Positions 2,801 through 35,227 of a DNA stretch of 64,000 bases are shown in pieces. The notes beneath the pieces are model-generated. The model was not told where the DNA came from. It saw only the letters and a program-made list of their open reading frames with translations, and did no database searches. The position numbers and the translations under genes are program-made. The first letter of the stretch is position 1, and every line of letters starts with the position of its first letter. This DNA comes from a virus: positions 64,001-128,000 of the IMG/VR virus record IMGVR_UViG_3300046171_000193; one strand, written 5' to 3'.

Positions 2801-2810
2801 GGAATCTAAA

Positions 2811-9449: not shown

Positions 9450-9682
9450 TGGAAAGAAATTTTAAGAAGGTAGAGGGATCTCAAAATTTATTCAGAGATC
9501 CTAATACAAATGCGATACTAAATACTGATATTGCTGGAATACAAAAGGCAAGAGAATTAAAGGCTGAAAGAAAAAAACGAGCTTTAGAATTTGAAAGAGT
9601 AAAAGACGACGTACAAGAAATGAAGGAAGATATGTCTGACATAAAATCCTTATTAAAACAATTGGTGGAAAAAAATGGCTAG
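9449..9682 (+). CDS. Small coiled-coil protein, typical follower of the VrlC-like gene
   Basis: KVEG..NLFRD..TNAILN motif plus a heptad C-terminus; start overlaps the upstream stop. Confidence 0.7.
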   Translation: MERNFKKVEGSQNLFRDPNTNAILNTDIAGIQKARELKAERKKRALEFERVKDDVQEMKEDMSDIKSLLKQLVEKNG

Positions 9683-10061
9683 AACCTTTGTAGATCTAAA
9701 TGATTTAGTTAATACATGGCGGGAAAAAACAAACGAGATCAGTTACAAAGTAGGTGACTTAGCTAACCTTGCCACCGGTGGGGACTCAGATCTTGTACAA
9801 GCGATTAACGAATTACATACTGAAGTTAGTAGTAATACTACTACATTAGGTAGTTTAAATCTATTAGATTCGGCCGGAGTTATAGCGCTTATTGGTGGTC
9901 AATTTCCAGTAGACACATCAGATCTTGCGGACTCTTCTATTACAGGAAGTCAAATAGCTAACGATGCTATTGGTCAAGAGCAATTATTATCAGTTGAAAG
10001 CCTTTCAATTTACGATTCAGCAGGAACTCTCTTGAAGCAGTTGTATGGCGCAGGAGCTTAA
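9675..10061 (+). CDS. Putative structural protein (collar/fibre-like N-terminus)
   Basis: NTWREKTNEI...VGDL..L...DLVQAINE motif; operon context. Confidence 0.55.
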   Translation: MARTFVDLNDLVNTWREKTNEISYKVGDLANLATGGDSDLVQAINELHTEVSSNTTTLGSLNLLDSAGVIALIGGQFPVDTSDLADSSITGSQIANDAIGQEQLLSVESLSIYDSAGTLLKQLYGAGA

Positions 10062-11096: not shown

Positions 11097-12173
11097 ATGG
11101 CACTATTTTCAAACAAAATAGAAACTGCAAAATTTGTAGATAGAAAAGAAAAAACGATTGAGGTGTTGTATAAACAAACTCCTGAATCAGAAACACTTTC
11201 CACGTATATTTTAGAATTAGACTATAGTAATCAAGATTTTTTAGATCTCTTGGATGAACTTACTATCGAAGAGATTCAAGACAATACAAAAAATTACTAT
11301 GATAATATGCGTAATGCTATGAACTTAAGTGTAGAAGAAAAGGCAAAAGTTTATTTTGCTGAATGGGTAAAAGTTGCACAAAAGGAATTAGATAAACAAG
11401 ATCAAGAACGATACGCTATATTTGAAAAATATAAAGAAGAGCAGCTTGCTATTTTACAAGGAGAAGTAGATGAACAAGTAGAGCGTAGAGTTCAAGAAGG
11501 ATATGACGGTGTTCAAGCTGTTATCGATCAACAATACGAAAAAGTTGAGGTATATAAAGAAGAACAAGTGCGCATATGGCAATCTGAAATTGATGTACAA
11601 GTTGAAGAACGTTATAAAGAAGTTGAAACATATAAAGAAGAACAATTAAAAATATTACAGGCTGAAGTTGACGAACAAGTAGAACGACGTGTTTCTGAAG
11701 GATTTGCTGATGTTGATGCATATAGAGAAAAACAATTATCAGTTTTACAAGCGGAACTCGATCAACAAGTAGAGCAAAGATACAAAGACGCTGACAAATA
11801 TAAAGAAGAACAATTAGAGACTTTACAAGTTGAAGTAGATGCACAAATTGAAAATCGATACAAACAAGCTGATCAATATTTAGAAGAACAAAAAGATTAT
11901 CAACAAACTCAAATGGAAGAAATAAAAGACGATCTTTTAAGTAAATATAGACTTGCTCCTAAAAACCTTAAAATTACTCCGGATAAAGTTGCAGACTATA
12001 TGGTAAATAATTTTAAAGATGAAGATCTAGTGTTTAAAACTAAGTTAGCTATATTTAATCTTCCAGAAGTGAAAAATAATAAAGATAGAGAAGTAAAAAT
12101 GAAAGTACGGAAAGCAAAAACTATTCCGGAATTATTTAAAGTATATGATGATATACAATGTAATCACAGTTAA
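11097..12173 (+). CDS. Acidic coiled-coil repeat protein
   Basis: 358 aa rich in E/Q/K, with an internal tandem repeat; RBS GAAAGG. Confidence 0.65.
   Translation: MALFSNKIETAKFVDRKEKTIEVLYKQTPESETLSTYILELDYSNQDFLDLLDELTIEEIQDNTKNYYDNMRNAMNLSVEEKAKVYFAEWVKVAQKELDKQDQERYAIFEKYKEEQLAILQGEVDEQVERRVQEGYDGVQAVIDQQYEKVEVYKEEQVRIWQSEIDVQVEERYKEVETYKEEQLKILQAEVDEQVERRVSEGFADVDAYREKQLSVLQAELDQQVEQRYKDADKYKEEQLETLQVEVDAQIENRYKQADQYLEEQKDYQQTQMEEIKDDLLSKYRLAPKNLKITPDKVADYMVNNFKDEDLVFKTKLAIFNLPEVKNNKDREVKMKVRKAKTIPELFKVYDDIQCNHS
11429..11900 (+). repeat. About six degenerate coding repeats of YKEEQL..LQ.EVD.QVE.R
   Basis: TATAAAGAAGA(A/G)CA and variants recur near 11430, 11552, 11631, 11720 and 11798; unit about 26-41 aa. 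Confidence 0.75.
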
Positions 12174-12852
12174 GTTCGGTAACAAATACGATTCTGAATT
12201 TGTTAATAGACTTTTTAGAGAAATTTGTTATTTTAGCAGAGGCTATTATGTAAACGGCTGGTTTAAGTTTTATTGCTATACAGATAATCCAGAAGGATTA
12301 ATGCATGGTATTAATGTTATCCCTGCTAAAACAGATCCAACACTAAAAGGCGTATGGAATAAGTTACGTCTCTTTGATCCTTCTATGCCATATGTAAGAG
12401 AAGGCCATTACAATATTTACTTAGATTTAGATACGTTTGTACAAGATTGTATCTTTACACGTTTCAGTCACTTTGGTGAAAAGGACTGGAATACACTTCA
12501 CGTGTGTGGCGCGCCATGGAAAAATGATAAGAAAAGATACGGCAGATTATCGAACTATGATGTGACTATACATAGTTCAGTAATGGCATGGAAAGCACTT
12601 AGTCATTTTGAAGTATGGAATCATTTTAGTAATCACGGTTTACGAGATTATTATATGAGAAAGTATTCAGGAGGTATGGATAGATTCTTAGCACACGAAG
12701 ATGTAAACATGAAAACATTCAAGCGTGACTTTGTAAGATCTATGAAATACGATAAAAATATAAAAGATGCAGCTATTGTATCATTTGAGGAACTAGATGT
12801 ACAATTCGGAGATCTTATACCGAACTATAAAACTAAGCGAGAAAGTGTATAA
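12145..12852 (+). CDS. GT-A fold glycosyltransferase
   Basis: VKFGNKY, FYCYTD, WNKLRLF, DxD motif YLDLD, HSSVMAW. Confidence 0.7.
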   Translation: MMIYNVITVKFGNKYDSEFVNRLFREICYFSRGYYVNGWFKFYCYTDNPEGLMHGINVIPAKTDPTLKGVWNKLRLFDPSMPYVREGHYNIYLDLDTFVQDCIFTRFSHFGEKDWNTLHVCGAPWKNDKKRYGRLSNYDVTIHSSVMAWKALSHFEVWNHFSNHGLRDYYMRKYSGGMDRFLAHEDVNMKTFKRDFVRSMKYDKNIKDAAIVSFEELDVQFGDLIPNYKTKRESV

Positions 12853-13420
12853 TGAATCTATGTATGGAATAGATGATCTTTATCGTATAAAAGATTTATC
12901 TCATTCTATGGATCATAAACACTGGGTCGGAAAAGAACATCTTGCAAAAAAGTTTTTTGAATTATATAATCACGACGCCGGGAAATTATTAGTACTCGGT
13001 GGATGGTATGGCATGATGGCTTATCAATTACGTGAGCAATGGCCTGATTCACATATGAATATAGAATCTACCGATATGGATCCTATGTGTGAAGAATTCG
13101 GATATGAATTATTTGGTGATAAAGATATTGCATTCTCCACCCTCAACATAAGTGACTCTTTTATTATAACACAATATACAGGGATTGTAAACACCTCTTG
13201 TGAGCATATGGAGCAAAAAGATTTAATTAATATAGTTAAATCAAAAGACCCAGATTGTTGGGTTGCATTTCAATCGAACAATTATACAGATTTAGATTCT
13301 CATATTAACTGTTATCCTTCGGCCGAGATATTTGCAGAGAGTTTAGAATTAGATTGGTATGCTGACATAGATACCCTAGATCTAGGTGATTTTCAAAGGT
13401 TTACAGTCATTGGAAAATAA
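12797..13420 (+). CDS. Class I SAM-dependent methyltransferase-like protein
   Basis: Motif I LLVLGGWYG, acidic STDMD at the end of beta-2, VNTSCEHM. Confidence 0.65.
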   Translation: MYNSEILYRTIKLSEKVYNESMYGIDDLYRIKDLSHSMDHKHWVGKEHLAKKFFELYNHDAGKLLVLGGWYGMMAYQLREQWPDSHMNIESTDMDPMCEEFGYELFGDKDIAFSTLNISDSFIITQYTGIVNTSCEHMEQKDLINIVKSKDPDCWVAFQSNNYTDLDSHINCYPSAEIFAESLELDWYADIDTLDLGDFQRFTVIGK

Positions 13421-14303
13421 AGTTGTATTTAGCGTATTCATTGATATTCCTGAAGATCGTTTAGATAATCCTGGATGGTATGATCAAGGTAAACAAGTCA
13501 TAACCGATAAAAGCAAAGTCACTAAACTTGCTTTACTGAATAATGCAGAGCTTGTCACACAAAGGCAAAAGCAATACGCTAATGATATTGGTGCAGACTA
13601 TATACTATTTAAATACGATAGTACATATAAAAAATTCTTTGATGATATAAAAAATAGGTTTACAGAGATCTCGGAATATGATATAGTTAACTTTTACAAA
13701 CACCGGGTGATGAGGGATTTAGCAGATGAATACGATTATGTATGTTATCTCGATTTTGATGTTATACCAAATACTACTGACTGTGTATTTCAAGTACATA
13801 ATGTAGATAAAGCTTTAGCAGTCGCTGAATCTAATAGATTGGCGATTCGTGGTAAGGTTATAAAATCAAAATATTACAATTTTTGTATTCGTAATCCTGC
13901 TACTAAATATTGGAATACTCATGCGCTTCTTACGGAAGAAGGATACGATCCAGAAAATGATGTATTTAATACTGGAATTATGGCAGCATCATCTAAGATA
14001 ATAAAGCAATTAGATTATTTTAAAGACTTTGAATATGTTATTAAACTTATGTCTGATGTAAAGCATGATGAGTTTTCGCTTTATCCAGAGAATATACAAA
14101 GAGTATTTAATTATGATAATGAGACTGTATTTTCTTTTTTAATTCAAACTAGAAATATACAAATAAATTATATGAAAAAAGAATGGCATTGGCTAGTAGA
14201 TGAGCTTATGTCAGAACCAAAGCACGTAGATCCTAAAGCAAAATTATATCATTTTATAAACAAGAAAATGGAGTGGATTAAAGATATAAATAAGAACAAA
14301 TAA
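13386..14303 (+). CDS. GT-A fold glycosyltransferase (start uncertain)
   Basis: QYANDIGADY, DxD motif YLDFD, FNTG, W...HFINK. Confidence 0.65.
   Translation: MIFKGLQSLENKVVFSVFIDIPEDRLDNPGWYDQGKQVITDKSKVTKLALLNNAELVTQRQKQYANDIGADYILFKYDSTYKKFFDDIKNRFTEISEYDIVNFYKHRVMRDLADEYDYVCYLDFDVIPNTTDCVFQVHNVDKALAVAESNRLAIRGKVIKSKYYNFCIRNPATKYWNTHALLTEEGYDPENDVFNTGIMAASSKIIKQLDYFKDFEYVIKLMSDVKHDEFSLYPENIQRVFNYDNETVFSFLIQTRNIQINYMKKEWHWLVDELMSEPKHVDPKAKLYHFINKKMEWIKDINKNK
14285..14292 (+). promoter_or_regulatory. Late promoter TATAAATA
   Basis: Exact motif upstream of the structural ORF at 14320. Confidence 0.7.
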
Positions 14304-14319
14304 CCTTAGAGTGTTGCAC

Positions 14320-14670
14320 ATGGCCCAGTACGAAGAATTATCAATAGATAAAGGTACCGATATTACTCTCCAATTAGAATTGGAAGATACTAGTGGTAAT
14401 CCGAAAAATCTTACAAATTACACAGTTGCAGGTAAAGTTAAGAAAACTTACAACACATCAGATAGTGATGCGACTGCATTTACGGCCGAGGTAAAAGCTC
14501 CAGCTACAGGCGGAGTTGTAAACCTTTCATTAACAAATACTCAAACAGGCGCATTTAAAGCCGGGCGATACGTATATGATGTAGAAATTTCTTTCGTAGA
14601 TAGCGATGCACAAACAGTGATAGAAAGAGTTCTTGAAGGCACAATCACAGTCACACCATCCGTGACATAG
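14320..14670 (+). CDS. Small virion structural protein (fibre-attachment type)
   Basis: LSIDKGTD, LSLTNTQT...KAGRYVYDVEI, RVLEGTITVTPSVT; ATG at 14320 preferred over GTG at 14311. Confidence 0.7.
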   Translation: MAQYEELSIDKGTDITLQLELEDTSGNPKNLTNYTVAGKVKKTYNTSDSDATAFTAEVKAPATGGVVNLSLTNTQTGAFKAGRYVYDVEISFVDSDAQTVIERVLEGTITVTPSVT

Positions 14671-14686: not shown

Positions 14687-17600
14687 ATGAAGGTTGTTGT
14701 TGGTCAAAACACGATCGTAAAAAAGATTACTGTTGGAACTCCACTGCGGGTGGGTTCGGCAGCAAATGGTTCATTAACAGGTTTAGACGATGTCAACGGT
14801 TCTATCAACCTTAGTGATGGAACAATACTTCAATATGACAGCGCTACCGGAAAATTTAACCATGTAACTCCTGCAGGAATAACAGGAAGTGGATTAACAG
14901 TAAATGATGCATCTGGATTAGGTTCAGTTGTATATGATTCAAGTTCAGCAGTTCTAACTTATGCTGGACCTTCTAGCGACAGCGTCCATTCGTTATTTAA
15001 TTCTACATACGATTCTAATTCCCTTGGTACATTATCATATACAAATGGAACTGTAAGACTTGTCGGTCCTACATCTGCTCAGATACGTGCACTCTTTAGT
15101 GCAGGAAATAGTTTAAATTATAATGAAACTACTGGAGAATTTTCAGTAACTGTACCAGATACAAGCGCGTCTTTTGATTCTGATTTTGGCACAAAAACTA
15201 CTGACGATTTAGCTGAAGGTTCAAATTTATATTTTACGGATTCTCGTGGTCGAGCTGCGATTGGTGTTACAGATAACGGAGTCGGCTTTGGATCTCTTGC
15301 ATACAATAGCGCATCAGGTCAAATAACATATACCGGTACTTCTGTTGCTAACATGCGAAGTGTTATCAACGTTGGATCAAATCTTGCATATGATTCTACT
15401 ACTGGTAAAATTACATTTACTGGTAGTCTAGGCGGAGACTTTGATGCCGGTGACGCTCAACAATCTATATCAGTAGTCAATGATAATGGTGACTACGGAT
15501 CACTAGCATATGATAATGCTAGTGGCGTATTTACATTTACAAAAGTTACAGATTCTGATATAAGAGGATCTATATCTGCCGGTGGTGATTTAGTTTACGA
15601 TCAAACTACTGGCCAAATAAGTTATTCAAAAAGAACAGATGCTGATATTAGATCGCTCTTTAGCGCTGCAGGAGATCTAACATATAATAATACTACTGGT
15701 AATTTTAGTATTACGACAGGAGCTCACTATGCAGACAGCGACGCTCGCGCAGCTTTTTCTGTTAATTTTGTTGGTGATACTGCTTTCGATAGTAGCCCAT
15801 ATGGAGGGGCTTCTTATAATTCTAGCACCGGTCTACTTACTATTAACGGTACTACTGATTCGAACATACGTAATTCCTTAACTGTACAGGACTCTGGCGG
15901 TTTAGGATCTCTTACATATAACGTAAAACAAGGTAGGATAGTATACACTGGCCCGGGCGTCAGTGATGTTTCAAGTCTTTTATCAGCTAATGTTGATTCT
16001 CTTTCAATGGGTAAACTTACCCTTGATTCGAGCAAAGGTCAATTTACTCTTAAATTAGAAGATGATAGTGTACGTGCTCTCTTTAGTGTGGTATCAGATC
16101 AAGAAGGTGGAGCAAATCTTACATACGACCAAGCAACCGGTGTATTTACTCATAGCGGTCCAAGTGACTTAGATCTTCGCGGTAAAGTTAGTGCTAGTGA
16201 TTTAGGCGGCGACGGCTCATTTACTTATTTTGAATCTGGCGGAGTCTTTACATATACAGGTCCAAGTCCTGCCGAAGCAAGAGCACACTTTGAAGGTGGA
16301 CTTGGTATTGATTATATCGAATCAACCGGCACATTTAGGCTTGATAGTTCTGCAAATATTGTAACAGGAAGTATTGTTACCGGCAAGTTAACTACAGATT
16401 CAGCTACAATTAATAGAGCCACAATCGAAAGTAGATTACGCCTTGATACTATTAGATCGTTAACCGATAGTGGTGATATTGATATTATAGCTGGTGATGA
16501 TGTTGAGATCACCGCTGGTGATAAAATTAATTTGCTTACATCTAATTTACGAACTTCAGCAGATAAACTTCGTCTTTTATCTGACGATAGTAATATTAAT
16601 AATATTTCTGGTGGTGGACTTATACTCGGCGCTGGATCTAATGAAAAAAGTATTTTACATCAGCAATACTTTGGCTATGACCAGTTTGTAATAGGCGCAA
16701 ATACAGGACTACATGTTCCTGGCTTTATGACCGGCCGAACTGTCGATTCTATTAATAAACGCATAGATGAGTTACCTGATTCTGCTCAGATGAAAGGTAT
16801 TCTATCTGCTGGTCCTGGTCTATCTTATGATAATATTAATGGTATATACAGAATCACATCTTCAGGTGTTGTTGCTGGAACTTACGGTGATGCAACAAAT
16901 GTTCCAAGATTTTCCGTAGATTCTCTTGGGCAAATTGATAGCATTAGTAATGTACCAATATCAACAGTTAATAACTTCGTATATGATTCTGCCACTGGCA
17001 ATCTTAAGATTACAACTGCGACAGATAGTTATAATGTCGGACTTACATTAGATCCTTTTACAACTAATAATCTTGTAGAAGGTCCTAACAATCTATATTA
17101 TACTCGAGCACGATTTGATAGTGCATTAGATGATAGTACTTCTGAAACAAGAATACGTCAATATTTTAGAACAGATCTTGCATCTGATTCGTCTCGTCAA
17201 CAAATAAGAAAATATATTAATGTTGGCGCAAGTTTAACATACGACTCAGCAACTGGTAAGTTAACAACTAATCAAGCTCTAGATTCTAACAGCGACGTAA
17301 GATTCCAAAATATCACACAGTCTGGGCAGTTACGTGGTCCGGCAGAGTTCATAATCGATCCGGCGGCTATTGGTGACAATACTGGTACAGTTAAGATCCT
17401 TGGTAACCTTCAGGTTGAAGGTACGCAAACGATTATTAATTCTACAACTGTTTCTGTCAATGATAAAAATTTAGTATTAGGTGATTCGGCTGCAGATTCT
17501 TCTGCCTTACACGGCGCTGGAATTACTTTAGGCGGAACTAACATTGTAGACAAACCATCGTTTACATATTCTCATGCCGATAAACGATTTGTATTTAATC

Positions 17601-18352
17601 GCAATATTCAAGCCGATAGTTTCTACGGCGATGTTACAGGTAACGTAACAGGCGACGTCGTTGGTAATCTTACTGGTAACGTAACAGGTCAAGTATCTGA
17701 TATATCAAATCACAATACAGATAGTCTTGCTGAAGGTTCTACTAATCTTTATTTTACGATACCAAGAGTAAGAAGTTCACTTTCCGTTGTTGATGCAGGT
17801 GGAGATGGTAGTTTTGTTTATGATTCATCAGCTGGACAGTTTACATATACTGGACCTAGCCCAGCAGAAACAAGGCAGCATTTAAATGTTCTTGACGCTG
17901 GCGGAGATGGAAGTTTAACATACGACAGCTCGCTTGGTAAATTTACATATACCGGTCCTTCGCCAACAGAAGCAAGAGCTCACTTTCAAGTAAATGATAC
18001 TGGTGGAGATGGTTCATTATCATATGATTCAGCAACTGGTACATTCACTTACGTCGGTGCATCTGAAGCCGATTTTTATCAGCATTTAAAAAATAATCAT
18101 GATAGCCTTGGCGATCTTACTTTTGATTCGACATATGGAAGTAAAGGCGGATTTGCTTTACATACTAGACATATACTAAGACAAAGAGAAGTTTATGCTG
18201 ACTCTTTTATTAATTCACAAGAGTATTTTTTAATGTATAGCGGAACAACAGGTGGAACACTTGTAAAAGTTAGGGCTGATACACTTGCTTCTAAAATGGG
18301 TGGCGGTGGCGGTGGTGCCGGCGGTGGATTGCTTGGTTATATTAACTTGTAA
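14687..18352 (+). CDS. Long tail fibre / fibre-like protein, very DS-rich
   Basis: LTGLDDV, TDDLAEGSNLYFT repeats, YxxxTG beta repeats, GNLQVEGTQTIINSTTVSVNDK, GDVTGNVTG repeats. Confidence 0.8.
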   Translation: MKVVVGQNTIVKKITVGTPLRVGSAANGSLTGLDDVNGSINLSDGTILQYDSATGKFNHVTPAGITGSGLTVNDASGLGSVVYDSSSAVLTYAGPSSDSVHSLFNSTYDSNSLGTLSYTNGTVRLVGPTSAQIRALFSAGNSLNYNETTGEFSVTVPDTSASFDSDFGTKTTDDLAEGSNLYFTDSRGRAAIGVTDNGVGFGSLAYNSASGQITYTGTSVANMRSVINVGSNLAYDSTTGKITFTGSLGGDFDAGDAQQSISVVNDNGDYGSLAYDNASGVFTFTKVTDSDIRGSISAGGDLVYDQTTGQISYSKRTDADIRSLFSAAGDLTYNNTTGNFSITTGAHYADSDARAAFSVNFVGDTAFDSSPYGGASYNSSTGLLTINGTTDSNIRNSLTVQDSGGLGSLTYNVKQGRIVYTGPGVSDVSSLLSANVDSLSMGKLTLDSSKGQFTLKLEDDSVRALFSVVSDQEGGANLTYDQATGVFTHSGPSDLDLRGKVSASDLGGDGSFTYFESGGVFTYTGPSPAEARAHFEGGLGIDYIESTGTFRLDSSANIVTGSIVTGKLTTDSATINRATIESRLRLDTIRSLTDSGDIDIIAGDDVEITAGDKINLLTSNLRTSADKLRLLSDDSNINNISGGGLILGAGSNEKSILHQQYFGYDQFVIGANTGLHVPGFMTGRTVDSINKRIDELPDSAQMKGILSAGPGLSYDNINGIYRITSSGVVAGTYGDATNVPRFSVDSLGQIDSISNVPISTVNNFVYDSATGNLKITTATDSYNVGLTLDPFTTNNLVEGPNNLYYTRARFDSALDDSTSETRIRQYFRTDLASDSSRQQIRKYINVGASLTYDSATGKLTTNQALDSNSDVRFQNITQSGQLRGPAEFIIDPAAIGDNTGTVKILGNLQVEGTQTIINSTTVSVNDKNLVLGDSAADSSALHGAGITLGGTNIVDKPSFTYSHADKRFVFNRNIQADSFYGDVTGNVTGDVVGNLTGNVTGQVSDISNHNTDSLAEGSTNLYFTIPRVRSSLSVVDAGGDGSFVYDSSAGQFTYTGPSPAETRQHLNVLDAGGDGSLTYDSSLGKFTYTGPSPTEARAHFQVNDTGGDGSLSYDSATGTFTYVGASEADFYQHLKNNHDSLGDLTFDSTYGSKGGFALHTRHILRQREVYADSFINSQEYFLMYSGTTGGTLVKVRADTLASKMGGGGGGAGGGLLGYINL
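17785..18070 (+). repeat. Three tandem ~34-aa repeats (DAGGDGS..YDS..G.FTYTGPSP.E.R.H); a fourth copy near 16195-16290
   Basis: Visible in both protein and DNA (GG(T/C)GGAGATGG recurs). Confidence 0.8.
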
Positions 18353-18369
18353 CTTAAATGTGAATTTTG

Positions 18370-18377
18370 TATAAATA
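18370..18377 (+). promoter_or_regulatory. Late promoter TATAAATA
   Basis: Exact motif, intergenic, before 18398. Confidence 0.75.
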
Positions 18378-18397
18378 AGAGTAAAGAAGTAGGAATT

Positions 18398-18736
18398 ATG
18401 GCAGCAGTATTTTCAACGAGCTACGTTAAAAACGTAGGAAGCACAGAGGCCACTCTGTATACCGCACCGGCTGGCCTAACCGGTAGGCACCTAGTTGTAA
18501 GTTTAGTTGCTACAAATATATTTGGATCTGCAATACCGATAAGCGCCAAGCTAGTACAAGGCGCAGATTCGGTTTTTATTGCATATAATAAAAGAGTTTT
18601 AGCAAATGATACTGTAGATTTGCTTATAAATAACTCAAAGATAATGATACAAAATGGCGATGTAATAAAAGTTTCTGCGCCAGTAGACGATGCGTTTAGT
18701 ATAATTATGACGGTAGTAGAGGAAGTTGAAACATGA
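18398..18736 (+). CDS. Small fibre-associated structural protein
   Basis: TLYTAP...GDVIKV motif; late promoter and RBS AGGA. Confidence 0.6.
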   Translation: MAAVFSTSYVKNVGSTEATLYTAPAGLTGRHLVVSLVATNIFGSAIPISAKLVQGADSVFIAYNKRVLANDTVDLLINNSKIMIQNGDVIKVSAPVDDAFSIIMTVVEEVET

Positions 18737-19035
18737 GTTACGGACACGATAATGAGGGCGGTATCTATACTGGAACCTCTTATAGTGACAAGACTTTCTA
18801 CGGGTTTAAGCTCGATAGCATCGGCGATCTAACTTGTACTGTTATAAGATCAGATGATAGTGATGTTGTTGAACTTCCTTCAGAAGTTTCTGCATCTTAC
18901 TTTGATTCAACGGTCGATTCTTTAGGAGTTACATTTGCTGACCCTGACGGATACCGTGCACACTTTTGGTCCATGGACGCAGTAACATTTAGGTTTAATC
19001 AAAATAACGGCCACCTTGAAATGGTTGTATTCTAA
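18733..19035 (+). CDS. Small hypothetical structural protein
   Basis: FYGFKLD...NGHLEM; ATGA overlap with the previous gene. Confidence 0.55.
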   Translation: MSYGHDNEGGIYTGTSYSDKTFYGFKLDSIGDLTCTVIRSDDSDVVELPSEVSASYFDSTVDSLGVTFADPDGYRAHFWSMDAVTFRFNQNNGHLEMVVF

Positions 19036-19055
19036 TGATTCGGAGTAATTAATCT

Positions 19056-22000
19056 ATGGCAACAATTATAGATCTCGGTAAACTAAGATTTGAGTATCGT
19101 GGTGAGTGGTCAAATTCCACTACTTACGAGGCTAATGATGTTGTCAAGTATGGTGGCAACCTTTACGTATACAAATATGGTTTAAAAACTTCAGGTAATA
19201 TTCCACAGACAGCTTCCCTGTATTGGGACTTGATGGTAGAAGGCTTTAAGTTTGAAGGAGCATACGATTCTGACGCAACATATAACATTGGCGATGGATT
19301 TTCATATGGTGGTATTGTTTATATCACAACAGCAAATAGTATAAGCGGAACACGTCCACCAAATGCTGGATATTCTACATTTACTGATGGTATTCAATAT
19401 GAAGGCACGTGGATTAATTCAAATCAATACCAAAAGTCAGATATTGTTAAGTATGGTCCAAAGTCATACATTGCTACACAAGATCCTCCAATCGGGGCGG
19501 TCCCATTACAATCTGCGTATTGGCAAGTATTTTCTGACGGAATATCCTTTGACGATGCCTACGACAGCAATTTAACATATAAGCCTGGCCAAGTAGTTAA
19601 ATGGGGTCCAAACTCTTATATAGCTCAGGCAGACGTTATAGCAGGGGATTCTCCTAATGTTGCCGGCAATTGGAATTCCATCATGGAAGGCCAAGAATGG
19701 AGAGATTCATACGCTTCTTCTACAAAATATTATAAAAATGAAATTGTAAAATGGGGTGCTCAAGGTTATCGTGCTAAACGTGATAATATTTTTAACTCTC
19801 AACCAGATAATAATCCAACAGACTGGCAACTAATTAGTGAGGGTTTTTTACCAAAAGGTGCATGGAACAGCGGAACTCAATATTATAAAAATGATGCTGT
19901 ACAATATGGTAATAATTTTTATAGAGCAAAACAATCTTCTTTAAATCAACTTCCTGATACAGCTACTACTTATTGGGAAGAATTAACTTCCGGTGTGAAT
20001 ACCCGTGGTTCTTGGGCATCCACCACAGTTTATTATGAAGGTGATGTTGTTATAGACGGTAATAAATCGTATATTAAGAATGGAACAACACACACTTCTG
20101 CTGCAGATTTTGCAACTGATGCGTCAAACTGGACACAGCTTACAAACGGAATTAATTATAGAGCAGGCGGTTACGATAGTTCTGCTAACTATTTAATAAA
20201 TGATGTTGTACAATATAGTACAAGCTCTTATATAGCACTAGAAAATTTTGCTGCTTCTGGTAATTTTGGTAGTGAGCTTTCGGGTGGTAAATGGGAACTA
20301 TTAGCTGCAGGCGGTGGTTCTGTTTTACCATCAATAACTAATGCTGACAGAGGTAAATTTTTAGGATCGACAGATGGTGTTGCTTATAGTTGGCAATATC
20401 CAGGTAAAGCTGATAAGGTTTATTATGTTGCTAAAGGCGGTAATGCAGATTCTGGTCTTGGTCAAACAATTGATACGGCTTGGGGATCAGTTAAATTTGC
20501 GTTAGATAACGTAACAGGTCCAGCTACTATCTACGTAAAAGAAGGTTCTTACCAAGAAAGCTTACCTATGACTATAGGTAACGACATAACACTTAGAGGT
20601 GATGGCCAAAGAAACACTGAAATTAGGCCAGCTGCTGGTGATTCGAAATAAAACAATGTTCTTTGTTAACAGTGGAACACTTGTCGAAGAATTTAAGTTT
20701 AGTGGATTGACTGGCTTTGCTTTAGATTCTGCAGGTGGCCAGCCACACGACATTGAATACGCAACTATCGGTGGTGTATATTTTAGATTAGATCCAAATG
20801 CGGTCATTTATAAATCTCCATATATTAAAGAATCAACTGCTTTTTCAAGTGGTGGTATAGGCGCTGTTATCGATGGTGGCTTGAATAGCAATGCTGCAAA
20901 CCAAGGTTCTATGGTTTTCCATACATTTACTCAGGTGCACAATGGTGGTGCAGGTTTCTGGGTACGAAGAAATGGTAAATCTGAGATCGTTTCTTGCTTT
21001 ACTTACTATAACGATTTCGGTCTTGTAACGACCGGTGGTGGTAAGATTAGAGCGCTAAACTGTAACAACTCGTACGGTACATATGGTGCTGTTGCTGAAG
21101 GATTTGATTCTGGTGAAGTTGCTATTACAGGTAAAATTAGGGGTCAATCACTTCATTATGATGGTAATACAATTACTGGTGGTACTGAATTCAGTGTAGG
21201 ATCACTAATTACTGGTTTAGCTAACGACAACAACGTCAATAGAGCAACACGTGCTGCTAATGTTTCTTTCCATTCACCAAATCACGGTTTGTTAACCGGT
21301 GAAAAAATTGCTATCTCAGGAATGACACCTTCAACATGGGCGTCACTATTTACAGCAGATAGTTATTGGGTAACAGTTACAGACTCGTCTAACTTTATTC
21401 CATATATAGACTCAGCTAGATCAACAGGTATTGATACACAATTAGCTGGTGGAAGAAATACAGTTTCTTCAACTATTACGGACATTGCTCGTCAAAATCC
21501 GGTTCGACTGACTGTTACAACATCTGCTAATACAGATTCATATGCTCCACACTATATTCAAAGTGTTGGTGGCATGACGCAAATGAATAACATTTGGGTT
21601 ACATTTGATAGTGGAGCCGCAACAGCAGGTACCACCTTGTATGCAAGACAAGCTGAAAATACTCAGATTCGAGTTAGTCAGCCTAATCCGGCATCTGAAG
21701 GTACTCAAACAAAAGGAACAACTGGCGGATCAACATATGATTTTGGTTCTAATAACCAAACAATAACACTTTATAGAGGTTCAAGATATAGATTCCTTGG
21801 TGACTCTGCAGCCGCTGTAACAAAATCGGTTGCTGGTGGGCGTTTCTATCTTTCTACATCAACGAGCTGGGATTCTAGTAACTTTACTGATGAATATACA
21901 ACTGGAGTTCTAAATAGCAGAAATACATTAGATGGCGATTCGACTCTTGATAGTACCGTAGACGGACTGATTATTGAAGTTGGACCTACAACTCCATCAA

Positions 22001-23247
22001 CATTGTATTATAATTGGGATAGTGCTTCATCTGCTTCTACAATGAGAGGACAAATTAACATTGTTAATCCTCCATTCATCGACGCTCAGTCATATAACGT
22101 TTATACGTCTGGTGGTCAAATCAGATTGATGGACTCAGGCGATTATTTTGACTCTGCTCATTGGAACGCTGAAGCACCAACTGCTAGTGTAATTAATACG
22201 CAGCCATCAGAAGACAAAATCTATATTGAGAACATGACGTTCCCTGGATTTACCGGTGGTGAGACAATTACACAAGGCGCAGTATCTGCTAGCATTGTTA
22301 ATAGTAACTTCATTAGAGGACAATATGGCTATATTGTAGCACTAGATACTTTGACAGGACAACCAAAACCTGGCCAATCTATCTCATTTGCTGATGATCA
22401 GGATAGTGCTGGATACGGAAGAGCATATGTTGTTTCTAGTGTAACCGGATACGACTCATCGACGGCTCAAGCAACACTAACATTATCACAGCAAAAACTT
22501 GAGACAAACGCTTCGGCTGATGACGCTGTCGCAACAATTAGAACTAATTATTCTCAGGTACGATTAACAGGTCACGATTTCTTGAGCGTGGGTACTGGTG
22601 GAGTAACTACAACAAATTATCCTGGAACTCCAACTCAACCTGCTTCTCAAGGTAACGAAGTTATTGAGACTGCTCCAGGTCGAGTTTACTTTATTTCGAC
22701 CGACCAAGATGGTAACTTTAGAGTTGGTAATTATTTCCGAATCGATCAGGCTACTGGACGAGCAACATTGGATGCATCTGCATTTGATCTTTCTGGTTTG
22801 ACGTCATTGAGACTTGGTTCAATTGGTGCACAAATTGGTGAATCAATTAACGAGTTCTCATCAGATGCAACGTTATCTGGTAACTCAAACCTTGCTGTTC
22901 CAACGGAGAAAGCAACTAAAGGTTATGTAGATGAAGCACTTAATTCTTTGGTTGATGCAATAGGTGCTGGAAATTATGACTCTGCTAATACTACATGGGC
23001 GACTGGTGCAAATACAGGAAATCCATTCCTTGACTCTGATCGTGGAGACTCTGGCGGAAGAAGAGCATTAGGATATACTATTGGACCGATAACTGTTTCT
23101 GAGATAGATTACGATTCGTATACCGATGAAGTTAAATCTTATAAAGAAAAAATGGTTTTAGGATTTGGATTTACAGAAGAAAAAAGCGTTTCTATTACAT
23201 ATAATAGCGACGGATCAATAGAACGAATACAAACGACCGTGTTATAA
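19056..23247 (+). CDS. Large fibre/spike protein with N-terminal carbohydrate-binding-like repeats and a beta-helix-like domain; split in the read by a 1-bp indel near 20647
   Basis: Removing one A from gattcgaaataaaacaatg gives ...PAAGDSNKTMFFVN, joining ORFs 19056..20651 and 20599..23247. C-terminal QVRLTGHDFLSVGTG, STDQDGNFRVG, INEFSSD, VPTEKA. Confidence 0.7.
19086..20310 (+). repeat. Eight ~50-aa repeats (G.W/Y.S...Y...D.V.YG..Y....W), CBM5/12-like
   Basis: Units start FEYRGEW, FKFEGAY, IQYEGTW, ISFDDAY, QEWRDSY, FLPKGAW, VNTRGSW, INYRAGGY. Confidence 0.75.
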
Positions 23248-23262
23248 TGGTAGAGGTAAAAA

Positions 23263-24510
23263 ATGGCAATTAATGTTTTACAATATAATCAGCTGATAAA
23301 ATCTGTTAATGCTAAGAGCGATCAGATTGCGACTCAACGGCGTATAAGAGACTCAGCAGATTCTGCGATAGGAACTCTTCCTGCTCAAATAACGGCATTA
23401 GCAGATTCTATTGCAAATTACGATAGTTTAATTGACAGTGCTCAGCAGTATGTAGCCAACTTTGGAGGAGATTTAAGCCTACTTGGGCTATGCGACTGCC
23501 ATTTTATGTTTTATTCTAGTCCTGTAGAATGCGTATGCACGTGGCAATATATTGTAGATTTATGCGATTATGCTGGATATTCGAGTGTAGGATGTCTGTG
23601 TCTTGATGGAGTTACTACTAACTGCTGTCATGGGCAATGTGGATTTAATTGTAACTGGACAGTTCCAGCTGGTACTAATAGAGTACAATTTGAAATCTGG
23701 GGACCGGGTGCTTCTACTACTTGGGGATCTTGTTGCGCATTTAGCCCCAATGGTATAACTGGTGCATACTTGTCTCAAATTATTTGTGTCTCTCCAGGTG
23801 ATACATTTTGTCTTCAATCAGGATGTGCTATTTGCTGTTATGCAAAAGGCTGTGAAGGTGGTTATCCAGCTAGTAATATAGGAACTCATAGTGCGGTATA
23901 CGGTTGTACTACTGCAACAGGCTCGGCTGTTTGTATGTGTATGTGTGCAATGAGCGGATATTCTAATCTGGCATGTGAAATGGTAGAACGTGATGGTTGT
24001 TGTGGTGCTTGGACTCAAGGATACTGCAGAGGCTATTGGAATTCTGGTAATTGTCTATGCACTCAAGGTCACTGGATGTGCTTTGAGAACAGCCGAGGAA
24101 TGTTCGGTTATGAAGGCCACCAAGGACAAGGTGGCTACTGTCAATGTACAATGCCCTATATGCCTTCTAGATGTACAGTTGCATATACATCAATTAACAC
24201 CGGTTCTTGGAATGACATTAGAGTGCCTAACACTTGTTTTACAGTTCCTGGTATCCTTTCAAAAGGATTTTTTAGTAACGACAACTACGGAAATGCGTGT
24301 TCTCAAGGTACTCCTAAATTCCCATGTATTCAATGTGATTGCTTTACTTCACAAACATGTTGGGGTGGACAGGCCTGCCAAAACTGTTGTGGCTATAGGC
24401 GAATTCCAGGTGCAGGTGGGGCGGTGAACCACGCAATGGGTGGTGGTACTGCTTGGTGTGGTGATATTGGCCGCGGCGGCGCAGTATACTTACGATGGGG
24501 TTGCATATAA
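23263..24510 (+). CDS. Cys-rich glycine-rich-domain adhesin / fibre-tip-like protein, copy 1
   Basis: WTVPAGTNRVQFEIWGPG...GAY...VSPG...GRGGAVYLRW scaffold; 44 Cys in 415 aa (hand count). Confidence 0.65.
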   Translation: MAINVLQYNQLIKSVNAKSDQIATQRRIRDSADSAIGTLPAQITALADSIANYDSLIDSAQQYVANFGGDLSLLGLCDCHFMFYSSPVECVCTWQYIVDLCDYAGYSSVGCLCLDGVTTNCCHGQCGFNCNWTVPAGTNRVQFEIWGPGASTTWGSCCAFSPNGITGAYLSQIICVSPGDTFCLQSGCAICCYAKGCEGGYPASNIGTHSAVYGCTTATGSAVCMCMCAMSGYSNLACEMVERDGCCGAWTQGYCRGYWNSGNCLCTQGHWMCFENSRGMFGYEGHQGQGGYCQCTMPYMPSRCTVAYTSINTGSWNDIRVPNTCFTVPGILSKGFFSNDNYGNACSQGTPKFPCIQCDCFTSQTCWGGQACQNCCGYRRIPGAGGAVNHAMGGGTAWCGDIGRGGAVYLRWGCI

Positions 24511-27634: not shown

Positions 27635-28555
27635 ATGGAGTATACAATGGATAAAGCCTTCTTCGTTAACGGCGGGGCCGGAAGAGTTCTATGTGCAATT
27701 CCTGCACTAGAAAAACATATCAAAGAAAATCCAGATGCTATTATTATAGCTGAAGCCTGGCCAGAACTTTATCTAATGAGTCCTACTCTTAGAGATAAAT
27801 CGTATGTTCCTACAACAAAAAATCTATTTGAAACTTTCTTAGCTAATCGAGAATGTATTAGCCCTGAGCCGTATAGGCTTAATGCATATTATACTCAAAA
27901 ATGTAGTATGTCTCAGGCCTTTGATATACTAATTAACGAACATGATGATATTCCAGAACCTATGGACTTAAATTTAGAGCTATCTAAAAGAGATCAGGTA
28001 TTCGGTTATAATTTTGTTGAAGATGCTAAAAACAATATGCGTAAGAAAAAGTCTATTGTTTTTCAGCCTTTTGGTTCAGGTGCTACACTTGAGGGAAGAT
28101 TTATAATTGATTCTACAGGAAGAAGCTTTGAGTTATCTGATGTTCTTTGGTTCATTGATAAACTTAAAGAAGAATATGCTATTATTATGATGAGCTCTTT
28201 TCCTATTCCAACTGATAAAGATCTAGGAATTATGATGCCTAAAGATTTGGGGCTTATTCAATGGGCAGCAATTGTAAATGCTACTGATGGATTTTTTGGT
28301 TGTGATTCTGTAGGACAACACTTTGCAAATGCTTTAAATAAGCCAGCAACCGTTGTAATTGGAGGAACTAATCCAGAAAGTATTAGTTATCCTAATAATA
28401 AAGATTTTAATATATTTGATCTTGGTGAAGGAAAAAGAAAATTCTCTCCTATGAGAGTATCTTTTGATCCATCATATGATTTAAACAATGAAGGTTTAAT
28501 GATAATGGATGATAAGAAAAAAAATGAAATACTTAATGTAGTGAAGGAATATTAA
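27635..28555 (+). CDS. GT-B glycosyltransferase, GT9 (ADP-heptose transferase)-like
   Basis: GGAGRVLCAIPAL (cf. xGDxxxxxP), IVFQPFG, FFGCDSVGQHFANALNKPATVVIGGT (cf. DSGxxHxAxAxxxPxxxxFGxT). Confidence 0.65.
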   Translation: MEYTMDKAFFVNGGAGRVLCAIPALEKHIKENPDAIIIAEAWPELYLMSPTLRDKSYVPTTKNLFETFLANRECISPEPYRLNAYYTQKCSMSQAFDILINEHDDIPEPMDLNLELSKRDQVFGYNFVEDAKNNMRKKKSIVFQPFGSGATLEGRFIIDSTGRSFELSDVLWFIDKLKEEYAIIMMSSFPIPTDKDLGIMMPKDLGLIQWAAIVNATDGFFGCDSVGQHFANALNKPATVVIGGTNPESISYPNNKDFNIFDLGEGKRKFSPMRVSFDPSYDLNNEGLMIMDDKKKNEILNVVKEY

Positions 28556-28556
28556 G

Positions 28557-30389
28557 ATGAGTACAGGATATATTTTATCTGTTACAAGAGGACATAATGG
28601 AGGAGCTTGTCTTTTAAAAGATGGAGAAATTGTTTTTCACATAGAAGAAGAAAGGTTAACCCGTCACAAATATGATGGTGGTCCTTATGCATCTTTAATT
28701 AAAACCTTAGAATATACAAATAAGATTGATTATCTTGTTATTGCTCATACTCAGCCATTAGATCAATCTGCTTCAGTAGACTTTTCTGGTGATGACGTCT
28801 ATACAGGATTAGCAAGAAAATTAGGATTAATTGAACGACGGAGAGATACTCGCAATCACCCACAAGTGCTAGACTATTCTCACATACACCACAAGCTTCA
28901 TGCCGCTGCTGCTTTTTATAGATCGGGATGGACTGATGCAGTTGCCGTAATCGTAGATGGGGCAGGTACATTTGCAAATATGGAATTTCAAAGCGGTATG
29001 GGTCCTAGAGCAGAAATAACATATGAAATTGAAAGCATTATTGATTGTGGATATCCACATAAGTTTGCAAACTTATATAAGCATCATGGCCATGCTGCTG
29101 ATATTCCTCCAATGCTGACTCGTAATTTTCAATCTCAAGATGAGCTAGGAACTGACTCTTTTGATATGTTAGTATCTGATCGTGCAGGTATTACAAAAAC
29201 ATATGAGAGTGTTACGGAATATTGTGGATTTTCGGCGATTGAGGCTGGTAAAACTATGGGCTTAGCTCCGTATGGTAAGCCTAATCCAGATCTTCCTCCT
29301 ATGTTTGAACCTGCATATATCGACGGAGAGAATTTTTTCTTAGCAAATCGTGGTAAATTTATACCAACATATCCTAATTCTGCTATTTATGTTGGTGGAA
29401 CTAATAGGGTATCAGGTCATAATTTGCATAGACAACAAGGGCAGGATCTTACTACTTTAGAAAATAGAAGAGATGTTGCGTATCAAGTTCAGCATGAAAC
29501 ACAGGCTCAAGTGCTTAGATTAATTAAAAAAGCAGTTGATATGTCTGGAAAAACTCAAGTTGTTTTATCTGGAGGATACGGATTAAACTGTGTAGCTAAT
29601 TATGAATATTTAAAAGATTTACAAGAAAAAGGCATTGAATTATATGTTGAACCTATTTCTAGTGATGCTGGTACGTGTATTGGAGGAGCTCTTCTTTGTT
29701 ATCATTTAAATACTGCTATTACTGGAGAAGGTCGATATAAATTAACTAGAAGTTGCTATTTAGGTCCAGAACAAAAATATAACTTAGATGATGTTAAATC
29801 TCTTGTTCCTCAAGATTCAGAGATAAAAGAAAATGTTAAATATTCTGATGTAGTTGATATTATTAAAGATAATACTATTGTGACTATTTTTCAAGGAAGA
29901 TCTGAATCTGGTCCAAGGGCATTAGGTAATAGAAGTATATTATATAATCCTGCAGATCCTAATGGCAAAGATCATGTAAATCAAGTAAAACGAAGAGAAT
30001 ATTTTAGACCGTTTGCCGGTACAATTCTTGAAGAAGACGTTCATGATTGGTTTGATTTGCGAGGCATGGAATCTAGTCCACATATGATGTATGCCGTAGA
30101 TTGTAAAGAAGGTGTGGGAGAAAAAATTCCTTCAATTATCCACGTCGACGGAACTTGTAGAATTCAAACTGTAAACGAAGAACAAAATCCTCACTATTAT
30201 AATTTGATAAAAGAGTTTAAAAAACAAACTGGAATTCCAGTAATTTTTAATACATCGTTTAATTTAGGTGGAGAACCTCTTGTGGAAACATTAGAAGATG
30301 CAGTTAATACTCTGGTAAATTCAGCGATTGAACACTTATATTTACCAGAGTTAAATGTTCTAGTTACTATTGCCAATTCAGAGGATTAG
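28557..30389 (+). CDS. Carbamoyltransferase, NodU/CmcH family, full length
   Basis: EEERLTRHKYD, HHKLHAA, VDGAG, AGKTMGLAPYG, SGGYGLNC, ESGPRALGNRS, REYFRPFA, HVDGTCRIQTV, NTSFN. Confidence 0.9.
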   Translation: MSTGYILSVTRGHNGGACLLKDGEIVFHIEEERLTRHKYDGGPYASLIKTLEYTNKIDYLVIAHTQPLDQSASVDFSGDDVYTGLARKLGLIERRRDTRNHPQVLDYSHIHHKLHAAAAFYRSGWTDAVAVIVDGAGTFANMEFQSGMGPRAEITYEIESIIDCGYPHKFANLYKHHGHAADIPPMLTRNFQSQDELGTDSFDMLVSDRAGITKTYESVTEYCGFSAIEAGKTMGLAPYGKPNPDLPPMFEPAYIDGENFFLANRGKFIPTYPNSAIYVGGTNRVSGHNLHRQQGQDLTTLENRRDVAYQVQHETQAQVLRLIKKAVDMSGKTQVVLSGGYGLNCVANYEYLKDLQEKGIELYVEPISSDAGTCIGGALLCYHLNTAITGEGRYKLTRSCYLGPEQKYNLDDVKSLVPQDSEIKENVKYSDVVDIIKDNTIVTIFQGRSESGPRALGNRSILYNPADPNGKDHVNQVKRREYFRPFAGTILEEDVHDWFDLRGMESSPHMMYAVDCKEGVGEKIPSIIHVDGTCRIQTVNEEQNPHYYNLIKEFKKQTGIPVIFNTSFNLGGEPLVETLEDAVNTLVNSAIEHLYLPELNVLVTIANSED

Positions 30390-32180: not shown

Positions 32181-32187
32181 ATAAATA
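32180..32187 (+). promoter_or_regulatory. Late promoter TATAAATA in front of the heme oxygenase / bilin reductase pair
   Basis: Exact motif 26 nt upstream of 32214; overlaps the divergent hldA start codon by one base. Confidence 0.6.
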
Positions 32188-32213
32188 TCTATTTCATAAT
32201 TAAGGGTTACATT

Positions 32214-34856: not shown

Positions 34857-35227
34857 TTTTGACTATTGCCTTTTGCAACTCTATAATTATCTTCTACGGA
34901 ATCTGGAGTAGAAACTTCTATAATAGTTCCTTTTTGCACGCATATGAGTTGATGCGGTATCAAAGGTTTAATTCTTCTGCTATCTCCAGCCGTTAATCTT
35001 TCTTTTTTTACAGTAGCGTCTAAAGTTTCTATTGTGAGTAAATCAAACACTCCTTCAAGAACAAACCATGATTCATCTTTTTCTGCATGGAAATGCATTG
35101 AAAATCTTGATCCTTCATTAAATGCTAATAATTTTCCACAATACTTATCATTAGTAGCAAAGATATTTTCATGGCCCCAACCTTTTTCGACAAAGCCTTC
35201 AAGTTGTGTCATTGCGAATCCTTTCAA
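34853..35227 (-). CDS. Cupin, sugar-isomerase-like (start may be 35212)
   Basis: VEKGWGHE, YCGKLL, SMHFHAEKDESW, PHQL, EVSTPDSVEDNYRV. Confidence 0.75.
   Translation of the reverse strand: MKGFAMTQLEGFVEKGWGHENIFATNDKYCGKLLAFNEGSRFSMHFHAEKDESWFVLEGVFDLLTIETLDATVKKERLTAGDSRRIKPLIPHQLICVQKGTIIEVSTPDSVEDNYRVAKGNSQK

Follow-up and report, generated by a model that had tools for sequence, protein, structure and literature searches.

The stretch of DNA analysed here (the window, 64,000 nucleotides) covers bases 64001-128000 of a single 151.7-kb virus contig (IMGVR_UViG_3300046171_000193), a genome 83% complete, and the subject of the analysis is an excess of the dipeptide Asp-Ser (DS), and of a tripeptide that extends it, in the virion proteins encoded there. 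In the window are the genes for the baseplate, fibres, neck, tail and head of an uncultured marine T4-like myophage, including gp8, gp9/10-like and VrlC-like genes, a T4 neck protein, gp15, sheath, tube, portal, prohead protease, scaffold and gp23. Between the VrlC-like gene (4197-9449) and the neck protein and gp15 (37008-38665) lies a variable island of fibres, a GT8 glycosyltransferase and sugar genes, which is a host recognition cluster of the kind described for marine T4-like myophages (PMC7029224). The terminase, so named at open reading frame (ORF) 38978 in an earlier reading of the same DNA (the initial annotation), is 69-93% identical to those of a set of uncultured records and of GenBank Phage C48C1, which are called the clade below, and just 42-44% identical to those of cyanomyophage-like records and of the Pelagibacter phages HTVC008M and Mosig. 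The gene psbA was not found in this genome. Where relatives have to be told apart, codes beginning with G, L and P denote their genomes, loci and proteins, G000 being the genome described here.

Asp-Ser excess in the outer virion proteins

Observed dipeptide counts were compared with a composition-preserving expectation, using 2000 shuffles for fibre 1, and all 400 dipeptides were ranked. Fibre 1 (ORF 14687-18352) contains 40 DS against 12.9 expected (z 8.4), a count reached in 0 of 2000 shuffles, together with 13 SD and 5 DT (11.0 DT expected). ORF 20599-23247, which belongs to a second and unrelated fibre (fibre 2), contains 20 DS against 5.6 expected (z 6.6), 3 SD, and 2 DT against 6.0. In both ORFs DS is the strongest outlier among the 400 dipeptides, and across the whole 151.7-kb genome these two alone have a z above 4 for DS. 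The excess extends to the gp8-like ORF 2811-4187 (8 DS against 3.1, p 0.009; 2 SD), to ORFs 9675 and 18733 with four DS each, and to the first 60 residues of ORF 23263 with five; nine smaller outer-module proteins pooled have 37 against 13.9 (Poisson p 2e-7). Core virion ORFs (36 against 33.8) and enzymes of the same region (18 against 19.0) are both at expectation, and the terminase and UvsW (49332) have no DS at all. The hand counts from which the initial annotation had started, for DS, SD and DT in the fibres, gp8, the small ORFs, terminase and UvsW, are thus reproduced exactly, and the excess that it proposed is significant under shuffling.

The signal depends on residue order and residue identity, SD being at expectation and DT depleted. 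Ser codons within DS are used normally, the share of AGY codons being 0.40 within DS and 0.34 elsewhere in fibre 1, and 0.25 and 0.23, respectively, in the second fibre. Taken together, the lack of SD enrichment, the depletion of DT and the normal Ser codon use place the signal at the protein level. A generic property of T4-type fibres was considered and is ruled out by T4 gp34-37, which show no DS excess.

A sharper motif emerges from the context of the 292 DS sites in ten DS-rich fibres, hydrophobic-D-S-(A/D), whose last three residues are written DS[AD] below. At position +2 of these sites Ala occurs 89 times against 28.5 expected and Asp 49 times against 20.1, Lys, Arg and Gln are nearly excluded, and Ile and Val are rarer than expected; hydrophobic or aromatic residues occupy position -1, with Tyr, Phe, Val and Leu favoured. 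Genome-wide, the related tripeptides DT[AD], ES[AD] and NS[AD] show no enrichment (DT[AD] ratio 0.58-1.1).

At least 11 virion proteins, of unrelated folds, show a significant enrichment of DS[AD]: the gp9/10-like, VrlC-like and LtfC-like proteins, gp8, gp15, gp23, the sheath, both fibres, and ORFs 9675 and 23263 (Table 1). The claim of the initial annotation that the motif sits in unrelated folds is borne out, and it now includes the VrlC-like protein, gp15, the sheath and the capsid beside the fibres and gp8. In the VrlC-like protein the signal is visible at the tripeptide level only, DS itself (15 against 12.1) being not significant. DS[AD] was not found in terminase, UvsW or the carbamoyltransferase, and the enzymes of the island do not carry the motif.

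The restriction of the motif to one clade is apparent at several levels. The genome-wide ratio of observed to expected DS[AD] is 2.35 in this genome, 1.8-4.7 in eight other clade records and 1.3 in C48C1, so that the clade as a whole spans 1.3-4.7 at a terminase identity of at least 69%; in ten outgroup or unrelated genomes, including cyanomyophage-like ones, HTVC008M and Mosig, the ratio is 0.2-1.2. Five clade genomes contain all of gp18, gp15, gp8, VrlC and gp23, and in each of them these proteins together have 18-22 DS[AD]; in outgroups the sum is 0-4. Protein by protein, gp8 homologues have 1-6 DS[AD] in the clade (none in C48C1) and 0-1 in outgroups, VrlC-like homologues 4-11 (0 in C48C1) and 0-2, and gp18 homologues 2-5 and 0-1. 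Position 245 of gp15 reads DSD in 7 of 8 clade members and DDD in 5 of 6 outgroups. Homologues of fibre 2 are bimodal, with DS z values of either 3 to 10 or -2 to +1, and the columns that hold DS in every DS-rich fibre 2 show DA, DV, DT, NN, NY, NG, GT or TV in full-length homologues of 41-43% identity. Few DS-rich fibre 2 relatives occur in IMG/VR. Some of the sites are invariant throughout the DS-rich group; others were gained in subclades. DS-rich genomes have both of the unrelated fibres DS-rich, and fibre 1 homologues in five loci (L081, L083, L002, L089 and L137) reach DS z values of 7-9.5. Two records, G006 and G043, have no DS-rich fibre in their flanks and yet show DS[AD] at 1.84 and 4.74 times expectation. 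Because homologues outside the clade lack the motif, the folds do not demand it, which is the behaviour expected of a sequon.

The positions of the sites were read from an AlphaFold2 model of ORF 20599 (38-sequence alignment, mean predicted local distance difference test (pLDDT) score 72.5). Of the 20 DS in this model, 18 fall in coil, and 11 are placed directly at a strand's C-terminal end (background 25%). In fibre 1 DS occurs in the turn of a Y-D-S-x-T-G-x-F hairpin and at the starts of short helices; the hairpin repeat carries DS in 7 of its 18 copies and NS, DN, DQ or NN in the others. In the DS-poor locus L045 the same hairpin repeat has DN or NS. The motif is thus located, as far as modelled structure indicates, where a beta-strand ends or a helix begins, in loops rather than in buried strands; the burial of DS sites that the initial annotation had named as a refuting outcome is not what the fibre 2 model shows.

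Table 1. Features of the window that bear on the motif; counts are given as observed against expected.
Feature	Position	Strand	Evidence
gp9/10-like baseplate protein, motif weakly present	1814..2800	+	Pfam T4_gp9_10_N E 1.4e-6; DS[AD] 2 against 0.28, p 0.03
gp8-like baseplate wedge protein, with motif	2811..4187	+	Pfam Phage-Gp8 E 3.8e-10; DS[AD] 5 against 0.59, p 0.001
VrlC-like 1750-aa baseplate protein, start of host recognition cluster	4197..9449	+	phrog_358; DS[AD] 8 against 1.86, p 0.001
128-aa fibre-like protein, with motif	9675..10061	+	DS 4 against 1.2; DS[AD] 3 against 0.23, p 0.003; weak tail-fibre PHROG match
Probable GT-A-type glycosyltransferase, without motif	12145..12852	+	Conserved hydrophobic strand, then D-L-D (DXD motif)
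Conserved 207-aa partner of two glycosyltransferases	12797..13420	+	No family match; accompanies GT8 gene in most loci
GT8-like retaining GT-A glycosyltransferase	13386..14303	+	AlphaFold2 pLDDT 89.9; invariant D-F-D after strand
LtfC-like beta-sandwich (fibre attachment or assembly), with motif	14311..14670	+	phrog_3304 and phrog_1084 E 1e-20 to 1e-23; Pfam LtfC E 8e-4; DS[AD] 2 against 0.07
Fibre 1, 1221 aa, most DS-rich protein	14687..18352	+	Repeats of ~34 aa (hairpin and short helix); DS[AD] 11 against 2.0
100-aa protein upstream of fibre 2, motif weakly present	18733..19035	+	DS 4 against 1.4; syntenic in DS-rich and DS-poor loci
Fibre 2 (CBM_5_12 N-terminus, beta-helix, conserved C-terminal domain)	19056..23247	+	~1388 aa in relatives
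415-aa structural protein, DS-rich N-terminus, with motif	23263..24510	+	DS 5 against 1.3, z 3.5; DS[AD] 3 against 0.17; phrog_35878
Weakly GT9 (heptosyltransferase)-like protein	27635..28555	+	phrog_8954; matches below cut-off
O-carbamoyltransferase (NodU/CmcH type)	28557..30389	+	Pfam Carbam_trans_C E 4e-60, Carbam_trans_N E 2e-22
ADP-heptose-type sugar cassette	30367..35597	-	Pfam: epimerase, PfkB kinase, HAD phosphatase, cupin, cytidylyltransferase-like, second carbamoyltransferase N-domain
gp15 tail sheath stabiliser, with motif	37880..38665	+	Pfam T4-gp15_tss E 1e-65; DS[AD] 3 against 0.23, p 0.002
gp18 tail sheath, with motif	40663..42399	+	Pfam sheath domains; DS[AD] 3 against 0.62, p 0.02
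gp23 major capsid protein gene, N-terminal part with motif	46764..48097	+	Pfam Gp23; DS[AD] 3 against 0.21, p 0.001

Fibre 2 is split in this record into ORF 19056-20651, with 7 DS against 3.4 expected, and ORF 20599-23247 described above. In the relatives P0001-P0017 the two are a single gene (1381-1399 residues, covering 98% of ORF 20599), and DNA alignment with two close relatives places one extra G near position 20643, which turns G-D-S-N-K-T into a TAA stop. The split is probably a sequencing or assembly indel, a real frameshift being the alternative. The gp23 gene is also frameshifted: tblastn homology runs across three frames between 46764 and 48094 (436-451 residues in relatives), with the frame changes located between ~47464 and 47700. 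The breakage of gp23 and the indel in fibre 2 together suggest indel errors in the record. A sequence search against solved structures gave no match for fibre 2 and marginal calmodulin matches only for fibre 1. The latter fall on residues 1025-1126 (window positions 17759-18064), where three near-perfect 34-residue repeats start with D-x-G-G-D-G-S and match calmodulin EF-hand pairs at E 0.01-0.03; these C-terminal repeats may, judging from their sequence, be calcium-binding loops of the fibre tip.

The island itself varies among close relatives. Many ORFs of G001 (135 kb) are 92-100% identical to those of this genome, whereas the outer module is only 57-90% identical and the G001 island is without the heptose and GT9-like cassette, so that modules have clearly been exchanged within an otherwise near-identical backbone. 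The DS-rich locus L081 carries its equivalent glycosyltransferase cluster on the opposite strand (1464-3417 and 4573-5205), two radical S-adenosylmethionine (SAM) genes and a second GT8 gene, a cassette gain of the type reported for host recognition clusters (PMC7029224).

A proposed recognition tag for modification in trans

The finding that an ordered, residue-specific tripeptide occurs on unrelated virion proteins and not on non-virion proteins or sister-clade homologues is most simply explained by a reader acting in trans. We therefore propose, with a probability of about one half, that hydrophobic-D-S-(A/D), on virion surface loops of one clade, serves as a tag recognised for modification in trans, probably by O-glycosylation of the Ser. 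A soluble phage enzyme would recognise the tag in the host cytoplasm and modify the Ser hydroxyl, and the finished particle would be coated with modified serines. The modification would most plausibly be a sugar, given the many transferases encoded and the precedents of the Bacteroidetes sequon, the BAHT family and the mycobacteriophage virions, and enzymes of the GT8 cluster beside the fibres may lengthen the glycan. The suggestion of virion O-glycosylation in the initial annotation is retained to this extent, being favoured by an order-specific, protein-level loop motif in unrelated folds; the heptose mechanism attached to it is not, for reasons given below.

Should the motif prove to be a sequon for modification, the particles of an entire clade of ocean phages would be decorated at dozens of defined serines, with consequences for adsorption, for stickiness in marine gels, for resistance to proteases and grazers, and for bacterial defence sensors of capsid and tail proteins. 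A three-residue tag for cytoplasmic O-glycosylation with a very small candidate enzyme would also be useful for glyco-engineering.

The only candidate enzyme tested that tracks the motif is a 199-residue Maf/CstII-like protein encoded outside the window, at genome positions 28625-29224. Its gene is present in 7 of 7 clade records that cover its region and in C48C1, and in 0 of 12 records outside the clade. The records G006 and G043 were taken up as counterexamples to this link and dropped, both carrying the motif by the tripeptide index. The protein matches PF01973 (DUF115) at E 0.019 and 15.2 bits, against a cut-off of 34.6, over profile positions 109-166 only, and the genome encodes a cytidine monophosphate (CMP)-sugar synthetase (PF02348, 75.8 bits). 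On the more specific proposal that follows, which we regard as tentative and rather doubtful, the Maf/CstII-like transferase would read the tag on strand-exit loops and attach an acidic, CMP-activated sugar throughout the particle, from capsid, sheath and neck to baseplate and fibres; the GT-A enzymes may extend this sugar. Such a system would provide the first defined sequon for phage virion glycosylation and a genetically portable O-glycosylation tag.

Several observations weigh against these proposals. The flank preferences also fit helix N-caps with a hydrophobic staple and Asx-turn hairpins. Outgroups have cap and turn residues (D, N, G, S, T) at the same columns, so that DS could be a structural solution fixed in one lineage. 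The putative Maf-like assignment draws on a sub-threshold Pfam match, a 13% Pfam share among look-alikes found with evolutionary scale modelling (ESM) and sequence motifs, and the protein has no sequence match in the PDB. C48C1 has the Maf-like gene but a weak signal (1.3 times expectation, and no DS[AD] in its gp8 and VrlC). G002, G043 and C48C1 lack the CMP-sugar synthetase, and the nonulosonate synthase NeuB was not found in this genome. Moreover, all genomes with the motif form one clade, so that any clade-specific gene, the Maf-like gene included, co-varies with it trivially as a single phylogenetic event; the best 80 IMG/VR relatives of the Maf-like protein are all at least 57% identical and belong to the same clade, C48C1 is the only GenBank relative, and no copy was found in unrelated phages. 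In the genomes compared, the association is thus inseparable from shared ancestry, and no writer is established independently of phylogeny. Finally, the published view is that glycosyltransferases of the host recognition cluster modify host lipopolysaccharide (PMC7029224).

Competing explanations and the encoded enzymes

The principal alternative is a lineage-specific structural motif, in which the Asp caps a turn or helix N-terminus at a strand exit, the Ser follows, and no enzyme reads the sequence. We consider this possible, if on the unlikely side. It would account for the placement of 11 of 20 fibre 2 sites directly at strand ends in the model and for the hairpin turns and short-helix starts of fibre 1, the Y-D-S-x-T-G-x-F hairpin resembling those of protein G B1 and chignolin. 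It also agrees with the flanks, since N-cap and hydrophobic-staple rules call for a hydrophobic residue before, Ala or Asp after and no Lys or Arg, and with the cap and turn residues of outgroups at the same columns. However, it leaves unexplained why the same ordered tripeptide appears in unrelated folds of one clade and not in their homologues elsewhere, why the non-virion proteins of the same genome lack it, and why it continues to be gained at new loop positions; moreover, the DS-poor L045 manages the same hairpin with DN or NS. If the motif is structural only, it represents an unusual convergent spread of one ordered tripeptide across unrelated folds in a single lineage.

The proposal of a modification tag also has to be set against other chemistries at the same residues, namely divalent-cation binding with D-S-D as a DxD-type site, phosphorylation of the Ser by an acidophilic kinase, or modification of the Asp, which we judge to be improbable. 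Cation binding would fit the enrichment of Asp at +2 and the faintly EF-hand-like calmodulin matches of fibre 1 residues 1025-1126; however, Ala and not Asp is the commonest residue at +2, and the calmodulin matches are marginal and local. No kinase was found. Modification of the Asp has a candidate in an AspH-like 2-oxoglutarate-dependent oxygenase at genome positions 146127-146768 (PF05118, 27.9 bits, above cut-off), present in G000, G001 and G002. This gene appeared specific in a comparison of three genomes with three but was rejected as a writer, being present at 72-73% identity in the DS-poor G029 and Mosig, and its pairing, as an LpxO/OlsC-like gene, with a desaturase-like neighbour suggests lipid chemistry. 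The block at the contig end to which both belong (genome positions 145484-151563) comprises a fatty-acid-desaturase-like gene, the Asp/Asn beta-hydroxylase-like PF05118 gene, a SAM methyltransferase, a flavin mononucleotide (FMN) reductase, a redoxin and two genes of unknown function; it is also present in G001 and G002 and is not in G006, G007 or G009.

The mechanism put forward in the initial annotation was that ADP-heptose made by the cassette at 30367-35597 is placed on the DS serines by the product of ORF 27635, in the manner of TibC/Aah, with GT8 assisting. In its favour are the presence of a heptose-type gene set, the TibC-type precedent on beta-helical autotransporters (PMC4358343), and a weak GT9 similarity of ORF 27635 to PF01075 (E 0.013, 15.3 bits, cut-off 22) and TIGR02201 (E 0.002, 17.2 bits, cut-off 170). 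No family-level BAHT match was obtained for ORF 27635, however, its best matches lying below every curated cut-off, and the genes do not follow the DS excess in their distribution. The GT9-like gene, the PfkB kinase and a close carbamoyltransferase orthologue are all missing from five DS-rich relatives (G001, the complete G002, G006, G043 and C48C1), and the GT9-like and heptose genes are present in the DS-poor G009 and G013. The ORF 27635 family stands beside DS-poor fibres in ten loci (L015, L027, L032, L033, L036, L045, L052, L062, L063 and L073), always paired with the carbamoyltransferase that follows it at 28557, and orthologues of the sugar cassette occur in the DS-poor G009, G013, L015, L032, L052 and L062 and in none of the DS-rich G002, G006 and G043. 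An equal excess in relatives without the heptose and GT9-like genes is the outcome that the initial annotation had itself named as refuting its proposal. The heptose route is refuted on this evidence, and we give it only a very slight chance.

The other glycosyltransferases fare no better as the cause of the motif. ORF 13386-14303 is of GT8 type by its predicted structure, having a GT-A fold, a DXD motif and, in Foldseek, likeness to LARGE1, XXYLT1 and LgtC (probability 1.00, E 1e-7 to 2e-6); PF01501 is found on some homologues, the window protein itself having no Pfam match at E of at most 5. ORF 12145 has no Pfam or PHROG match, and its ESM look-alikes are nucleotide-diphospho-sugar transferase and GT8 clusters with scores of 0.94-0.98. 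The cluster that contains both genes (12145-14303) was rejected as the cause of the motif, since it occurs in DS-rich and DS-poor phages alike, beside DS-poor fibres and in outgroup genomes. The co-variation between DS excess and glycosyltransferase or heptose clusters that the initial annotation anticipated is thus absent. Its view that the phage encodes glycosyltransferases of its own holds for ORF 13386 and probably for ORF 12145; their assignment to the DS serines does not, as neither the GT8 cluster nor ORF 27635 tracks the motif. It follows that action on the virion cannot be taken for granted for the glycosyltransferase and heptose genes of a host recognition cluster.

Two features of the sugar cassette are recorded for completeness. 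It includes a second carbamoyltransferase, reduced to the N-domain (33969-34856), and with two carbamoyltransferases the product may be a carbamoylated sugar. It is also interrupted by a heme oxygenase and a ferredoxin-dependent bilin reductase on the + strand (32214-33387), in a genome without psbA; the pair may, we presume, belong to the PcyX-type viral bilin reductases.

A cause at the DNA level, in which selection on GANTC or repeat expansion would yield GAY-TCN by accident, was tested and can be dismissed, since the density of GANTC in both fibre genes, at ~2 times the window mean, is in excess in codon phase 0 only and is thus a by-product of the protein motif, 25-40% of DS serines are encoded by AGY, the same share as other serines, and internal repetition, evident in fibre 1, places only ~7 of its 40 DS in the canonical hairpin and is absent from fibre 2 and the core virion proteins. 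The codon shares and the codon-phase test agree with the initial annotation, which had read the mixed codons as a sign of protein-level selection and not of a DNA repeat.

Comparison with known systems

In pelagimyophages and cyanomyophages the region from VrlC to the neck genes consists of tail fibres with GT8, rfaE-type and radical SAM cassettes (Zaragoza-Solas et al., 2020; PMC7029224); its authors take the glycosyltransferases to act on the O-chain of the host and describe no motif in the virion proteins. Among cultured pelagimyophages, HTVC008M and Mosig lack the tag, unlike the clade described here.

Among enzymes that modify Ser next to Asp, staphylococcal SdgA and SdgB act in the cytoplasm, adding N-acetylglucosamine to Asp-flanked Ser of surface adhesins and protecting these from proteolysis. 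Their substrates are long tandem (SD)n tracts, whereas the tags found here are single and dispersed and SD is not enriched.

Maf proteins (PF01973/DUF115) are soluble cytoplasmic enzymes that transfer CMP-activated acidic sugars to Ser and Thr of flagellin, a self-assembling polymer. The clade-specific 199-residue protein resembles them in its weak PF01973 match and in the PF02348 CMP-sugar synthetase of the same genome, and differs in that the match lies below cut-off, the length is about one third of that of Maf and a nonulosonate synthase is missing. The sites used by Maf on flagellin have, to our knowledge, no D-S-(A/D) sequon.

The bacterial autotransporter heptosyltransferases (BAHT) TibC and Aah carry out cytoplasmic hyperglycosylation of many serines in short loops of a beta-helical autotransporter adhesin (PMC4358343). 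The fibres described here are likewise beta-rich, with DS at strand exits. They are unlike TibC/Aah substrates in that the GT9-like gene and the heptose pathway do not track the tag and similarity at the level of the BAHT family is lacking. The sites of BAHT enzymes are described as a structural motif and are not known to follow D-S-(A/D).

A precedent on virions is that of mycobacteriophages, whose own capsid and tail proteins are reportedly modified by phage-encoded glycosyltransferases (Freeman et al., 2023, Cell Host Microbe 31:1216, as cited in PMC12801897). In these siphoviruses of actinobacteria the modified residues reportedly lie in Ser/Thr-rich C-terminal stretches of the capsid and tail-tube subunits. 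The motif described here is dispersed, unlike those tails, and the modification demonstrated there is for the present phage a proposal.

Phage virions assemble in the cytoplasm. The O-glycosylation system of Bacteroidetes, described in Bacteroides fragilis and Tannerella forsythia, uses both Ser and Thr acceptors in the sequon D-(S/T)-(A/I/L/V/M/T, later also S/C/G/F) and requires export to the periplasm (PMC8550257). With cytoplasmic virion assembly, such export of the phage proteins is very unlikely. The present motif is confined to Ser, DT being depleted, and is thus not the Bacteroidetes D-(S/T) sequon to which the initial annotation had appealed; at the third position Ala is strongly favoured, but Asp is favoured as well and Ile and Val are depleted. 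The third residue of the Bacteroidetes sequon is small or methyl-bearing, and the likeness between the two lies in a sequence of three residues that begins with Asp, would carry the sugar on the hydroxy amino acid that follows, and is distributed over many unrelated surface proteins.

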